Notes under the pieces: generated by a model | Database searches by the model: none | Seen by the model: only the letters and a program-made list of their open reading frames with translations | Told to the model about the DNA's origin: nothing | Made by a program: the position numbers and the translations under genes | Shown: piece by piece, positions 1 through 60,500 of the stretch | How the letters are laid out: the number at the start of each line of letters is the position of its first letter | How positions within the stretch are numbered: position 1 is the first letter of the stretch | Source of the DNA: Eledone cirrhosa | Lineage: Eukaryota | Reading direction: 5' to 3' | NCBI GenBank assembly: GCA_964016885.1 | Contig: OZ024745.1 | Location: forward strand, 68,076,001 to 68,140,000 | DNA: 64,000 nucleotides

Positions 1-737
1 AGATGATTGAACGTCTGAAAGTATATACTTTCCTTATGCATATTAACGGCTGAGCAGCCTAATTTGCAACGATGGTTGCTAAACACTGTACGGCTTAATT
101 CGGGATGTTTATTTACAACCATCCCGAGCATTATAATAAATGTTCGGTGAATCCATACGTACATATATATGTGTGCATGTATGTATATATATATATACAT
201 ACTACTGTACGTCTGTATACATATATGTATGTACGTATACATACTTATATTTAAGTAACAGCCGTACTAAGAGTGAGAAATGAAATTTCGTTTCATTTTT
301 TCCATTTATCGTTTTCGGTGCGCCCGGCCGATTAACTCACTCGATATGCAAATTAGGCTGCTCAGCCGTTAATATGCATAAGGAAAGTATATACTTTCAG
401 GCGTTCAATCATCTGGCAAGAAGGTATACGGTGCTGACGATAGCTAATAAGCTTGAAACTAGTACATCGTTCCTTTGTCAGTGTTGAACAAAAGGGAAAC
501 GATGGTTGCTAAACACTGTACGGCTTAATTCGGGATGTTTGTTTACAAACACACCGAACATTATAATAAATGCTCGGTAAACCCATACGTACATATATAT
601 ATATGTGTGCATGTATGTATATATATATACATACTACTGTACGTCTGTATACATATATGTATGTACGTATACATACTTATATTTAAGTAACAGCCGTACT
701 AAGAGTGGGAAATGAAATTTCGTTTCATTTTTTCCAT
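1..737 (+). mobile_element. Penelope-like pseudo-LTR-type cassette with inverted and direct repeats, ending in (TA)n
   Basis: 1-68 is the reverse complement of 347-414. 68-306 is directly repeated at 498-737. The hammerhead lies at 428-470 and (TA)n follows 737. Confidence 0.65.
428..470 (+). ncRNA. Minimal type-I hammerhead ribozyme
   Basis: Stem I ACGGTG/CATCGT; core CTGACGA at 434-440; stem II AGCT-aata-AGCT; GAAAC at 455-459; short palindromic stem III (AC-TA-GT); cleavage triplet GTA at 462-464. Confidence 0.85.
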
Positions 738-1216
738 ATATATATATATATATATATATATACATATATAAATGAAGTCGTGCAGCTGGAACTTCAGTTA
801 TACTCATTATATATATATATATATATATATATATACACACATGCACACACACACAACACACACACTCACACACACACACTCACACACGCACGCGCACACA
901 CACACACACACACACACACACACACACACACACACACACACACACACACACACACACACACACACCCACACGCCCCCCCACACACATGCACACACTCATA
1001 TATGTATATATATATGACTTCTAAATGATTAGAGCTGGTTCATTCGTATGAAATCGTTAGGAATGCACTTATTCTCCACTAACGTATTGAGTACATTATT
1101 TAACTGCGGTTTTGCAGATGAAACTTTGATAAAAATATGCTAGTCGTGTATTGTGCAACATTTAAACGATCAGACTGAATAGGATTTAAAGATTATATAT
1201 ATATATATATATATAT

Positions 1217-1428
1217 AACGAAGGAAATGTGGTAAGGAACCAGGTGGACCATAACGCACCAAAGTACTCAATACTTAGGGTAGTAGAGTGGGTAATAGGA
1301 ACGACTAGGATCCCGACGGCTGAGCCCAAGCCGTTTCGACGGCTAATTTAAAAAAAAAAAATTTTTTTTAGTCCAGAATTAGCCGTCGAAACGGCTTGAG
1401 CTCAGCCGTCGGGGTCCTACTTGTTCAT
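1217..1428 (-). mobile_element. TA-flanked fold-back cassette (family A) with hammerhead 3' half
   Basis: Homologous to 39063-39231, 44240-44431 and 4741-4851. Inverted arms carry GAAAC-GGC...GCC-GTC (stem III plus cleavage triplet). Confidence 0.7.
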
Positions 1429-56963: not shown

Positions 56964-57543
56964 ATACTCTCGGATCTCGAATGATCGTCCCCCCCACCCT
57001 CCTATTAATTTTTCAGATTTTTTTCCACCACTCCCGCTCTTATTCCACACACCGCTTATTAAATTTTATTTTATATTAAGTGGTAGGATTCCTGAGACAA
57101 TTAATTTTCTTTATACTTTAAAAAAAATTTTACATGACAAAAAAAAAAAAGAACGTTACAAGAAATCCCATACGTTATAAAATAAACAGGATGGGTTGGG
57201 GTCTAATATGTAAACTAAACGACTAATGATGGTTTTTTTAAAAATCAAAGGAGGCATCCTAGAAAAAATTACCGATTTTCTAACCCCACCCCACTTATTC
57301 CAAGCCCCTGCTTATTCCAATCATTCCCGCTTATTCCACACCCCATTTGGCATTATCGGTAGAGGGTCGGATGCCATGCTTTCCAGCATAGTTACGTCCC
57401 TTAACGATCTGAGTTCAAATCCCGCTGAGGTTGACTTTGCCTTTCATCCTTACGGGGTCGATAAAATAAAGTACCAGTAATGCACTGGGTAATTGCTGGC
57501 CTTGTGCCAAAAAGTCGAAACAATTATTTTGGACCCGAGTGTA
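56964..57543. mobile_element. MITE-like element with a nested family-1 SINE (57347-57527, plus strand)
   Basis: Imperfect terminal inverted repeats TACTCTCGGATCTCGAAT and ATTTTGGACCCGAGTGTA, with internal repeated CTTATTCCA motifs. Confidence 0.55.
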
Positions 57544-60500
57544 GTAAAGTGAACGCTGCCAGATTATAAGTGTCAACAATACACATCAATAAACGTATGG
57601 TAATAGAAGCACCAATAAATTCCAGGTTGAGAATTCGGTTGTTTGATCAACTGAACATCATCCAACTTATGAATTGTGAAACAGGTTGAATATTCCACAG
57701 ACATGTATACCCTTAACGTAATCCCTAATCCGAATCAGTGAAACACCACAAATGATAAAATTAGACCTTTGAATTACAGCTACAATCAATCGGACGGGCC
57801 TCAACACAATTTCCGTTCGCTAAGTTTCACTCACACGGTTTTTGTTGACTCGATGATATGGTAAAGATTCTTAACTACTCAGTCATGTCTGCATTCACGG
57901 TATATTTAAGATTTGATGAATATAACTACAGTAATGGCAGGATGGTTATAAAGTTTACTTCACAATTTATTGGTTTCAGGGTTAATATCTGTGCGACACC
58001 TTGGGAAAGGATTTTGCTCCATAACCTCAGATAAACCAAAGCACTATAAATAAAATTTGGTAGGAGACTACATAGAAGCTTGTCAAGGGGATCGTTTCTA
58101 TACCTGTATGGTCGACTTAATCCATCGCCCTATTTAATCCCACTACCTATCTCACAGGCTCCTTTGGTCAGGTCGCCGGTTTAATGATACTTTTCCTCTT
58201 TCCTTCTTTCAGATATCGGGGCTCTGAAAATGGCCAGGGACGTTGTCTATCCTCCTCTGACTAAGTCATAAAATTGTCGCAAAATATATAATAATTAAAT
58301 AAAAATCAAGTATTATATTATTCATGGTTATCCTTTTTTTTATGGCGGTTAAGTGTGATTTGACGGAGATTTGACTGCTATTTTTAGGAGGTCAAGTGGA
58401 GATGTCCTTGGTTGGCTTATTGTATATCTAGGCGTGGAGTGGTGTTACCTAAACAACTCAGTTAAGACGTTCAGCCTCATGGTTAGGGTGTTGATCTCAC
58501 GATCTTGGATTAAAGGACTGTCTGGTGTGCTGTGATTTTGTGTAAGTTAACTTCATTTTATGTCATTCCAATCCAATCAGCTGAAAAGAAAAATGTGTAT
58601 CAGTCTTCCGGGATAAGCCCCGGTCTGTTGAGTCTCTGGGTTTTGGACAGACTTTAACTATAACTTAAACAACAACTCTAGGATAGCGATTTCTACCTTG
58701 GTGCATCTTATTCAGCTTCTGTGCATCTAGAACCACATTTGTTTATACACCAAAAGGATTACATAACGCACCATACAGTTTAATAAGTACACAAGAATGT
58801 CTAAGGGGTAAAGAAACTTCTTTTCCAACCACGAGGTCTCGGGTTCGCTCTCTCTCTGTGACATTCTGGGCAAGTGTCTGTATTATATCCTCTAGTCGAC
58901 TTAAGCATTGTGAGTGAAACTGCGCAAACAGAAATTGTATTGAAGCTCGTCTTATGGATTGTACTTGTAATTCAAAATTCCAGCTTTGTCACATATTCTA
59001 TCATGCTGATTCGATGTAAGAATGTTGCTATGGGTATATGTGTATATGGAATACTCAGCTGTTTACACGTTGATCGATGAAACAGACGCAGGATTCATCA
59101 TCCTAATATATAGTATGGATGAATGAGTAATATATTTAGCAGTACACCAAAGTTCTATTTAAAAGATATAAACGCTTCATGTAATTAGAATCCAAAGGGT
59201 GACAACAGATACTACAAGGCACCTCGACGGTAATTTTTCTAATCCTGCATCATTTGAATATTACTTTATTTATCGACATTGAAAGGATTAAAGGCAAAGT
59301 TGACCTCGGTGAGGTATGGAATCAGTGCAAAGAGCCGGAAGAAATACCGAGCCGTTTAATCTGACACTCTAACGACCCTGTAAATTGAAATAAGTTCAAC
59401 AATTTAAATATCATATCTGAAACTTTTAATGATCGTCAGTAACTTTCTATTGGCTTTCAAGTATTTAATTATCCTGTAGCATACTTTGTGATTATCAAAT
59501 TAGTAGCGTGTGTAATTACTCAATGTACGTGATTATTTGTCGTTTGTAGTAATGATTCGTTGTATAAATAGCTGTAGTGGAATAACCTGGAGATATTTCC
59601 TGTGTATGCTGCTTATTCCATAGTTTGTAGCCGGGTCTGGAACTTGGCTGAATGGTTAAGAAATTTTCTTAGCAGTCTTGAGACATAAGGCTTAATCCTA
59701 TCTTGCGCAAGTGCTTTTACCGTAGGCTTGGGATGACCGTATCATTGTGAGTGAAATTGGCTCGGCGGAAACTGTGGAAACCCGTCAAATAGATTGTTAC
59801 TCTATTTCAAATGGCCAGTCGTCTTATATATTAAATTGTGAGTAAATATGTGATTCATTTTTTTTTATTTGTATAAATACAGTATAGAGGTAACCGCATT
59901 ATTGATCAGATATAAAAATTCACATACATCATATTTATATATATATATTTATACGCTCAGCAATGATGATTGCGAGAATGAGTACTCAATACAAGAGTAG
60001 AGATTAATAAATTCTTTATTGAGCCCAAGCTTGAACTTTTGAGTTTCTCCTGAGTACTCATCTTGTAGTACAGTTTTTCTGATGATCCTGTCAAAACACA
60101 AGAGATACTATAGAGCAACATAACTCAAGTTTGTCTTTAATAAAAAAAAAAAAAATCTATATCTACGCATGTCACTATTTACTATTTATACACGGTGAGT
60201 GAAAGTAGGAAGCTATTTACGTTCTTTCGGAACTAAGGCGCAAGTAATAAAGAAATGGAAAAAAATCTCTTTTAATACAAGCAGAGGCGGAATAAGTAGA
60301 AAGATAATATGACAGCTGGTCAAAGCTTAAAACTCACAAGATAGCAAAATATCCTGAAGACAGAAATGTAATGAAGCAATCAGTGAGGATTTTAATCGAA
60401 AATGGCGGGGATAATAGATATAAACATATCAATAAGACTTCATTTCATATTTGTCACAATTTCTCGGTTGAAGAGGTTTGTAGATGTCTTAAACAGTGGA

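Follow-up and report, generated by a model that had tools for sequence, protein, structure and literature searches.

What are the short islands, most of them in or next to (TA)n tracts, that punctuate this 64-kb stretch of Eledone cirrhosa DNA (hereafter the window) and in which the same hammerhead ribozyme core recurs between different stem sequences? The preliminary description read them as non-coding ribozyme cassettes of about ten families, mobilised in trans into TA microsatellites. Our analysis leads us to regard them, with good confidence, as insertion scars of Penelope-like elements (PLEs) targeting (TA)n, which carry the ends of both coding and retrozyme-type units and whose reverse transcription starts are, in the Hydra-clade families and their passengers, probably guided by a hairpin. 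PLE architecture, TA targeting, two internal reverse transcription starts and retrozymes have all been described in the literature, and ribozyme-bearing PLE ends are themselves already known; the new part is a paired hairpin beside both start sites, together with the pairing of one long and one short end.

Hammerhead cores and their position beside TA tracts

Repeat finding was swamped by the TA tracts, and a masked self-BLAST was used to map the islands. About 12 families are present, close to the earlier estimate. The features, with positions in the window, are:

1–736, plus: family W1 insertion; inverted arm 1–68 (extending left of the window), partial tandem 68–303, unit 304–735 (432 nt), (TA)n
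428–470, plus: W1 complete type I hammerhead; U.U at 10.1–11.1, palindromic stem III (dimer form)
307–346, plus: W1 variant bulged hairpin after the long end; lower stem off consensus, in 6 of 9 read-through copies displayed, weak
1218–1426, minus: family A fold-back insertion with its long arm on minus and its short arm on plus; 3′-half-like hammerhead motif only
1266–1289, minus: family A tail bulged hairpin
1475–1622, no single strand: family H1506 fold-back insertion; truncated core near 1506–1545 (minus), one-mismatch tail hairpin (plus)
4729–4850, plus: family A insertion (masked self-BLAST)
19041–19267, plus: family F fold-back insertion; hammerhead 19106–19158 with CAGAAGA core, tail hairpin 19184–19229
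20456–20517, plus: family E fragment inside long (TA)n; 5′ arm of stem I truncated
28590–29056, no single strand: family B fold-back insertion; complete hammerheads 28721–28786 (minus) and 28950–29015 (plus), tail hairpin 28654–28672 (minus)
29369–29586, minus: family G29418, from an autonomous Hydra-clade PLE whose 3′ UTR is 5′-truncated here; complete hammerhead 29418–29472
29651–30061, minus: diverged family C fold-back copy; hammerhead 29890–29960 with one core mismatch
30118–30323, plus: family B relative; hammerhead at 30211, stem I broken
30399–31088, plus: island of family H30863; tail hairpin 30980–31039 and a hammerhead (from 30863) mismatched in stem II
38359–39014, no single strand: family G38409 fold-back insertion, its non-coding unit ~525 nt long; complete hammerhead 38409–38490 (minus)
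38902–38925 (plus) and 38733–38753 (minus): first and second G38409 hairpins
39065–39230, plus: family A fold-back insertion; tail hairpin 39159–39182
39291–39470, minus: family D fragment; hammerhead from 39346, stem I interrupted
44242–44429, plus: family A fold-back insertion; tail hairpin 44358–44381
45112–45232, plus: family F fragment; hammerhead 45165–45215 with CAGAAGA core
45434–46322, plus: family C insertion, non-coding; inverted arm 45438–45600, partial tandem 45605–45803, 519-nt unit 45804–46322, (TA)n
45983–46061, plus: family C complete monomeric-type hammerhead; stems of 7, 4 and 6 bp, predicted cleavage after 46054
46249–46274, plus: family C first bulged hairpin, following the short end closely on its 3′ side; second copy of it at 45730–45755
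45816–45835, plus: family C second bulged hairpin, just 3′ of the long end; weaker in other copies
46553–46800, minus: family D relative; decayed hammerhead from 46671
50868–51237, minus: family J, from a Neptune-like coding PLE whose 3′ UTR is 5′-truncated here; minimal hammerhead 50947–50982
51289–51488, plus: fold-back insertion of family E with a hammerhead from 51353; tail hairpin ~51427–51445, mismatched once in this copy

The cores were examined with a type I hammerhead descriptor requiring stems I–III, its strict form demanding an exact core and a stem I of at least 4 bp, and were compared with 60 local dinucleotide shuffles of the 64-kb window; a descriptor demanding the 10.1–11.1 pair misses several real sites. 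Six of the 17 core sites listed earlier, the mirror copy included, pass the strict form (cores 434+, 28958+, 28778−, 29467−, 38484− and 45990+), against a shuffle mean of 0.02 and maximum of 1. Allowing a stem I of 2–3 bp admits three more (51361+, 20458+ and 39431−; 9 matches in the window, shuffle mean 0.12), as does allowing one core mismatch (CAGAAGA, U4A), which adds 19112+, 45170+ and 29955− (11 matches in that run, shuffle mean 0.43). Thus 12 of the 17 pass with their stems checked. By eye, four others are damaged or minimal: 50947, minimal in form, has an unpaired A ahead of stem II, stem I is broken at 30211, a mismatch lies within stem II at 30863, and stem II has decayed at 46671. 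The last, 1506, is truncated, and both C3 and stem I's 5′ arm are missing at the truncation point, although a relative in locus L145 is intact. Two relaxed-run matches that had no entry in the earlier list, 8103 and 17208, are probably chance matches, since they lie more than 10 kb from the next 3′ TA tract and have no relatives in 160 loci.

Not every earlier site was supported. At 60078, where a degenerate core had been proposed, GAAA is absent in register and no relative occurs among the 160 loci. The four family A islands said to hold half-cores do exist and carry a 3′-half-like motif, but two pattern searches for the 5′ half gave no excess over control (1 versus 1; 33 versus 31), and the single match fetched was unrelated coding DNA. 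The Rfam Hammerhead_1 model, suggested as a check, reports no hammerhead in the window at its gathering score, Rfam scans of the window picking up nothing beyond a single tRNA-like match and microRNA-like noise in the TA/CA repeats; elsewhere in the genome 18 of 74 scored candidates reach that score and are likewise TA-linked. In family C the core is intact in 23 of 30 copies and is conserved at 0.96, compared with 0.92 overall. The stem covariation looked for within families is weak there: most pairs are invariant across the 30 copies and one terminal pair changes from A-U to U-A in four. Taken as sequence motifs, the window hammerheads are real type I hammerheads.

The predicted association with TA repeats is strong and directional. 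A hammerhead lies 30–270 nt upstream of the TA junction, and (TA)6 occurs within 270 nt 3′ of the cleavage site at 12/12 passing sites (background 22% within 300 nt). In 39 random 10-kb stretches of the genome (390 kb), 19 strict matches were found against 0.2 in shuffles, and 16 of the 19 are TA-linked on the 3′ side (background 17%; binomial p = 4e-10). This sample extrapolates to ~146,000 strict matches genome-wide. Its density, 3.1 per 64 kb versus 6 in the window (Poisson p = 0.096), shows that the window is not a hotspot, contrary to the swarm first described; likewise, one element per 4 kb is reached only by counting damaged copies, the strict figure being 6 per 64 kb.

Coding and non-coding families

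No PLE coding sequence was detected in the 64-kb window by tblastn with four PLE proteins, which agrees with the earlier remark that no autonomous partner is visible there. Copies joined to such coding sequence, as had been anticipated, do exist elsewhere in the genome: three of the about 12 window families (G29418, J and F) are linked to a single ORF with a reverse transcriptase (RT) plus, at its C terminus, a GIY-YIG endonuclease. The G29418 island matches, at 97% identity, the 3′ UTR carried by an element (locus L192) with an open 892-aa ORF, a canonical hammerhead and an insertion site in (TA)n. A motif scan of this ORF found RWK, DKT, CxCX5C, CxxC and CxH, with CCHH absent, as in the description of the Hydra clade; the ~4.2-kb unit, with its 1.2-kb 3′ UTR, exceeds the descriptive trait of <3 kb for that clade because of the long 3′ UTR and linker. 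Five open frames of 814–896 codons occur among 150 scored G29418-type endonuclease matches. A Pfam search of the L192 ORF returned nothing significant. Atlas placed it near clusters with HTH_animal/GIY-YIG families, which we note as a lead only.

Family F follows the end of a Hydra-type ORF in one copy (locus L075), the fragment showing 37% identity over 265 aligned positions, and carries U4A in 19/19 copies read. By motifs and sequence likeness G29418 and F belong to the Hydra clade; a Nematis label for their proteins was discarded, as published alignments point to Hydra. Family J has RT/GIY-YIG coding sequence upstream in 12 of 29 other copies, with a CX2-5CxxC linker, the GIY-YIG domain and a thumb resembling Neptune rows by eye; it is called Neptune-like only. 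Other apparent coding links, namely window-family matches at GIY-YIG loci and an ORF adjoining a G29418 copy (locus L085), were rejected as separate insertions in the same TA tract.

Three further families are retrozyme-type non-coding units of 430–530 nt, in which the sequence upstream of the unit is its own 3′ end, the repeats measure 432–528 nt and no stop-free frame exceeds 77 aa. The W1 unit (432 nt; no stop-free frame >67 aa) recurs in tandem at three loci (L035, L184 and L187). G38409 forms arrays with a repeat of 522 nt at L098 and of 528 nt at L104; its arrays comprise two and three units, with a hammerhead in each unit. The 519-nt C unit is accompanied by a partial tandem; at its 40 best-scoring places the unit is matched in full or for the greater part, and most of 30 loci have partial tandem copies, inverted copies or both, with ends at unit positions 437–441. 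W1 falls within the published retrozyme range of 150–450 nt, and C and G38409 above it. This short tandem, non-coding status covers W1, C and G38409 and is not claimed for families A, B, D, E, H30863 and H1506.

The two kinds of family bear on two simpler accounts. That every island is a non-coding cassette moved in trans, as the preliminary description held, fits the lack of an ORF in the window and the tandem W1, C and G38409 units; the coding ties of J, G29418 and F make it very improbable as a general statement. The converse, that every island is the 5′-truncated end of an autonomous PLE and true non-autonomous units are absent, draws on the rule of truncation in PLEs and on the abundance of their coding sequence (fragments at 5/39 random loci; 10,597 first-look GIY-YIG candidates in the genome). 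We think it scarcely credible, given the 432–528-nt repeats of C, W1 and G38409, in which coding capacity is lacking. A mixture of PLE and retrozyme-type elements targeting TA microsatellites is what the TA-linked 3′ ends and the coding and tandem-unit families indicate, and this part of the earlier proposal is upheld.

Paired junctions and the bulged tail hairpin

Each insertion consists of a 5′-truncated 3′-end copy, often head to head with a second, inverted copy. The end structure known for PLEs is present: a partial tandem (pLTR), an inverted 5′-truncated copy and an optional tail. At the centre of several islands lies a palindrome. The junction sites are fixed in each family, two in number and 50–120 nt apart, and fold-backs use one of each: a long and a short end are paired in 47 of 48 unbiased fold-back pairs, a count that omits loci fetched with their own family as query, drops W1 (swamped by TA-like matches) and includes no pair from G29418. 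In family C, TA loose ends occur at both sites (45812 and 45722–45727) in contigs, of unrecorded kind and possibly from the assembly's own sample, that represent at most one sample.

In 9 of 12 families the short end is followed, ~5–11 nt further 3′, by the start of a bulged hairpin of the form RYTC-stem-loop-stem-TY-GARY. Five families have it again behind the long end, this second hairpin being read in one copy each in B, F and G29418 and being weak in most C copies; W1 has a variant only and J has none. At 30–130 nt before a TA tract it occurs 23 times in the random 390 kb (shuffle mean 1.95, maximum 7), and it can be seen in the Hydra consensus sequences published for coral and sea cucumber. 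Pairing in the upper stem is kept across 17 unrelated families although its sequence varies freely, and the lower stem is nearly constant apart from A-U/G-C and C-G/U-A swaps, with a 2-nt bulge on one side only; these cross-family pair counts are circular, since a pairing descriptor was used to choose the rows. Thermodynamically the hairpin is marginal: folding predicts its full bulged form as the minimum-energy structure in 3/12 tail segments (z-scores −2.6 to +0.8).

In the mechanism that we propose, the PLE RT/GIY-YIG protein would nick both strands of a TA tract, and the free ends would prime internal reverse transcription on RNA in tandem or circular form, the first at the short site and the other at the long site; both cDNAs would stop early and then be joined. 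In Hydra-clade families and their passengers the protein would bind the bulged hairpin just 3′ of each start site, with the TA primer aligned on the AT-rich bases in front of it, and non-coding units that keep the hairpin pair would be carried in trans. The hammerhead would cut multimeric transcripts to unit RNAs and be dispensable for insertion.

Alternatively, a single cDNA could give rise to a fold-back pair through self-priming or template switching, as inverted-junction palindromes of rotifer Penelope elements have been interpreted and as palindromic island centres might suggest. Arms ending at two distinct fixed sites, each against TA, in 47 of the 48 pairs argue against this, as does the cutting and extension of both target strands by a Poseidon protein in vitro, and we consider a single-cDNA origin unlikely. 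Somewhat less unlikely, though still doubtful, is that the tail motif acts as DNA or linear sequence (an endonuclease site, promoter or terminator): its lower stem is nearly constant, its folding energy weak and its position just upstream of the ORF start in tandem coding copies, and, according to a citing paper, DNA recognition by the endonuclease of Drosophila Penelope depended on the tail. Variation of the upper stem with pairing retained, the lower-stem swaps and the one-sided bulge, all under the selection caveat above, speak for an RNA hairpin, and so do its fixed short distance to both junctions and its retention in non-coding units. The RNA hairpin is probably the cis signal for internal reverse transcription starts and trans mobilisation, and may be the signal recognised by the PLE enzyme. 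A more specific model, to which we give even chances, is that Hydra-clade PLEs and the retrozymes they carry share undescribed twin bulged hairpins, conserved from coral and sea cucumber to E. cirrhosa, each 5–11 nt 3′ of one of the two internal start sites and bound by one protein subunit, so that one short and one long end result; this would explain the ‘tail’.

We found no earlier description of the short/long end pairing or of a bulged hairpin beside PLE starts in the literature searched, the supplements of Frangieh et al. and of the 2026 preprint lying outside that search; the main text of Craig et al. 2021 (PMC8557442) mentions no hairpin, stem-loop or bulge. How PLEs pick two internal starts, and how non-coding retrozymes recruit the PLE enzyme, are open questions in the literature, and a short conserved element beside both starts makes them a mutational experiment. 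The tail hairpin may offer a structural parallel to the template-boundary elements of the related telomerase. If the proposal is true, the twin hairpin identifies which autonomous clade mobilises which retrozyme, and any hairpin-bearing RNA could serve as a template that a telomerase-related enzyme copies into TA repeats. The genome also holds roughly 10^5 intact-looking hammerheads missed by Rfam thresholds. Hydra-clade PLEs are abundant in it, not rare, and have been active recently.

Comparison with known systems

The closest relatives are the C-terminal EN+ PLEs of the Hydra clade (Craig et al. 2021, PMC8557442), of which only a few families were found in that study, octopus Hydra-1_Obim included. 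They share with the L192 element the five motifs and the absence of CCHH, a canonical hammerhead near the 3′ end, the (TA)n target, partial tandem and inverted copies and an optional tail; they differ in length (generally <3 kb, versus ~4.2 kb with a 1.2-kb 3′ UTR here) and in their tails (30–40 nt, versus 50–120 nt here).

Animal non-LTR retrozymes (Cervera and de la Pena 2020, PMC7229834; Li, Clavereau and Pollet 2026 preprint) are likewise non-coding tandem units of low GC with one type I hammerhead each, coexist with PLEs, of which they have been proposed to be non-autonomous derivatives, and reach up to 120,000 copies in axolotl. The units here are longer (430–530 nt, versus 150–450 nt as published), are mostly scattered through (TA)n as insertions of 1–2 units that have the complete end structure of a PLE, and are described here at the DNA level, a retrozyme being defined also by expression as linear and circular monomer RNA; the tail hairpin common to the units indicates a single partner clade.

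The minimal and variant hammerheads known from PLEs (Cervera and de la Pena 2014, PMC4209133) show the same palindromic stem III suggesting dimer action, the extra base before stem II and many sequence families per genome, and the Neptune-like J site fits this pattern; several families here differ in having long stems II and III, and family F in its U4A. Finally, Poseidon PAc (Frangieh et al. 2024, PMC11167929) has two adjacent internal start sites that define the tail, extends both target strands and inserts in vitro without hammerhead cleavage; the tested element, unlike those with the hairpin described here, starts reverse transcription inside an AC-rich stem loop.

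Hammerhead cores in the window and in the genome

The window has a GC content of 35% and its repeat landscape looks octopod. Its merged TA tracts number 66, compared with 49 per 64 kb in samples drawn at random from the genome (3.0 Gb; 1,796 contigs). Using a type I descriptor which needs stems I–III and permits a mismatch at 10.1–11.1, with 60 local dinucleotide shuffles as control, 6 sites pass in the window with an exact core and a stem I of at least 4 bp (shuffle mean 0.02; hereafter the strict descriptor); 9 pass when stem I is relaxed to 2 bp (0.12), and 11 matches are obtained when one core mismatch is allowed (0.43), two of which, unlisted in the preliminary description, are probably due to chance. 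In 39 evenly spaced 10-kb stretches (390 kb) of the genome, the strict descriptor gives 19 matches versus 0.2 in shuffles, i.e. 3.1 per 64 kb. The excess in the window is not significant (p 0.096), and extrapolation gives ~146,000 strict hammerheads genome-wide (88,000–228,000, Poisson, clustering ignored). Of these 19 matches, 16 have (TA)6 no more than 300 nt away in the 3′ direction (background 17%) and 8 have it on the 5′ side; the rate exceeds that of shuffled sequence, and the TA association of the preliminary description is confirmed.

Twelve of the 17 core sites listed there pass some descriptor run. The cores at 30211, 30863, 46671 and 50947 are exact, with a broken, decayed or minimal helix, and the 5′ side of the core at 1506 is cut off. 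The degenerate core proposed at 60078 is not upheld, as GAAA is absent in register and no relative was found among 160 loci. For the half-cores assigned to family A, a 3′-half-like motif exists (one 27-mer of it was counted 2,866 times genome-wide), but searches for the 5′ half found none. An Rfam scan of the window at gathering score revealed no hammerhead. Of 111 strict matches across all loci examined, 33 have U.U, 24 A-U, 21 G-C, 15 G-U and 10 C.A at 10.1–11.1; U.U also occurs in published Hydra motifs.

Island architecture, non-coding units and coding relatives

Self-comparison of the window reveals islands ordered as TA tract, inverted truncated copy, partial tandem, unit and TA tract, which is the Penelope-like element (PLE) arrangement in extracts of PMC8557442 and PMC3846280. 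Family C is a 519-nt unit, all or most of which is covered in the 40 best of 4,256 first-look candidate places; most of 30 loci have the unit's own 3′ end immediately upstream, and most have an inverted arm terminating at unit position 437–441. W1 (432 nt) and G38409 (522–528 nt; arrays of two and of three units) behave similarly. None of these three units has a stop-free frame longer than 77 aa, and they fit non-LTR retrozymes (PMC7229834); a recent preprint makes the case that retrozymes are PLEs of a non-autonomous kind (bioRxiv 10.64898/2026.07.22.740005). Since some copies exceed one unit and span an intact cleavage site, they imply a template that is circular or an uncleaved multimer.

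The earlier view of all islands as non-coding cassettes holds for C, W1 and G38409, whereas J, G29418 and F are truncated coding elements, linked at other loci to the Penelope RT/GIY-YIG coding that it was suggested to look for. Neither assignment could be made for A, B, D, E, H30863 and H1506. Family J is Neptune-like, judged by its linker, and 12 of 29 other copies are preceded by RT or GIY-YIG coding that runs in the same direction; Neptune-like coding elements with hammerheads and TA ends of their own are likewise common in the genome. G29418 is a young family (best 39 other copies ~98–99% identical). Its 3′ UTR comes after an endonuclease remnant at one locus (L191) and after an open 892-aa ORF at another (L192), its end there being 97% identical to window 29368–29585; open frames of 814–896 codons occur at 5 of 150 scored endonuclease matches. 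The L192 ORF contains RWK, DKT, CxCX5C, CxxC and CxH and lacks CCHH, a motif set corresponding to the Hydra clade description (PMC8557442). Family F comes after the end of a related ORF at L075 (one copy). Its hammerhead core carries U4A in 19/19 copies read (window 19107–19158 and 45165–45215, and 17 others), consistent with the ribozyme being dispensable or tolerant; U4A is either a natural variant or the mark of a dead ribozyme in a spreading family.

Endonucleases of further PLE families are present at L141:2416, L170:739, L105:8749, L153:2119 and L081:4538; downstream of each come a hammerhead-like core of its own and a TA tract. Other features of the window are given below.

Other repeats and frames in the window
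3990–4572: island bounded by TA, duplicated internally in both direct and inverted orientation, architecture like PLE islands; contains a tRNA-like match, 4088–4158 (−), above the Rfam cut-off
~9300–14500 (+): broken LINE, presumably L1/Tx1 type, whose frames resemble ORF1 and ORF2; L075 and L084 contain related RT frames
21653–22480: tandem array made up of 14 copies of a 59-nt unit, 97% alike
24397–24915 (−): 173-aa stop-free frame adjoining an (ATGT)n tract (24802–25242); no Pfam match; we take it to resemble the C-terminal restriction-like endonuclease of R4/Dong-type non-LTR elements
27749–28362: purine-rich, 9-nt-based array
43711–44172: further TA-bounded fold-back insertion, arms 95% alike, hammerhead core absent in this copy
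3272–3470, 8789–8979, 31375–31965, 36129–36898, 37610–37800, 46354–46540, 57347–57528, 63463–63984: ~190-nt SINE-like repeat, with 3–4-unit tandem arrays and one inverted pair, frequently adjoining TA tracts

Two junction sites and a bulged tail hairpin

Every family tested joins TA at two fixed sites (short end and long end), 50–120 nt apart. Fold-back pairs combine one short and one long end in 47 of 48 cases (A 11, B 9, C 5, E 8, F 8, H30863 2, G38409 4/5), a count excluding pairs from loci fetched using that family's own query. TA loose ends are present at both family C sites in contigs of three runs (at most one sample).

The tails of unrelated families share a motif comprising RYTC, a 3–6-bp stem, a variable loop, a 3′-side TY bulge and GARY. 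The random 390 kb contain 23 such motifs 30–130 nt before a TA tract, versus a mean of 1.95 (maximum 7) in 20 shuffles preserving TA tracts; other bulge letters give 7 (TA), 2, 1, 2 and 3, and 9 motifs have TA on the 5′ side. Across all loci examined, the motif occurs 140 times and falls into 24 clusters, of which a few are chance. Nine of the 12 window families clearly carry the hairpin, either in their window copies or in relatives, and it is doubtful in D; W1 has a variant, solely after the long end, and J has none. The TA run starts mostly 5–11 nt before the hairpin where measurable, 4 of 14 references being without data and 2 having one or two copies only. Five motif-bearing window families offer a true read-through copy, and in all five a second hairpin lies beyond the long end: in 5/5 copies of G38409, in a single copy each of B, F and G29418, and in C, where it is clear in the window and weak in other copies shown.

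Among 17 family representatives, which had been selected for pairing, pairing is observed at 7/7 positions, with two-sided changes at five. What counts against the hairpin is that, of 12 segments, only 3 are predicted by folding alone to adopt the full bulged form. In an out-of-sample check by eye of six published Hydra consensus sequences, it is complete in Hydra-2_Amil (coral) and in Hydra-2_Ajap and Hydra-1_Ajap (sea cucumber; two copies ~45 nt apart, directly before ATG); Hydra-1_Crog has a purine-bulge variant, Hydra-1_Obim is doubtful, and in Hydra-1_Amil the region lies outside the consensus. Neptune-like tails (J read-through copies L164, L165 and L171; L055, L059 and L099) show, by eye, further hairpins whose bulges differ and which may be a diverged counterpart of that seen in Hydra.

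Proposed mechanism and relation to known elements

The architecture, the two end sites, the coding links and the motif position are established here; the mechanism that we propose is as follows. A dimeric RT/endonuclease would nick both (TA)n strands, each nicked end would prime on the AT-rich bases directly 5′ of one hairpin, and the short cDNAs would then be linked in head-to-head orientation. Non-coding units retaining the hairpins would ride in trans on Hydra-clade protein, and W1 may be served by another clade.

The islands are real elements of a known kind. Hammerheads in PLE ends have been published (PMC4209133), and the literature likewise describes retrozymes, tails, the targeting of TA and the presence of Hydra elements in an octopus; 235 Rfam hammerhead matches are given for giant squid in an extract of PMC6962438. 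Literature listings and the main text of Craig (subscription papers, Repbase notes and preprint supplements being outside this scope) contain no report of the hairpin pair or the one-short-one-long rule, and the hairpin is apparently an undescribed, testable cis element. In the available text of PMC11167929, the PLE 'tail' was shown in vitro to extend from one internal RT start site to a second, and hammerhead mutants still inserted in vitro; the two TA-junction sites observed here match such a tail.
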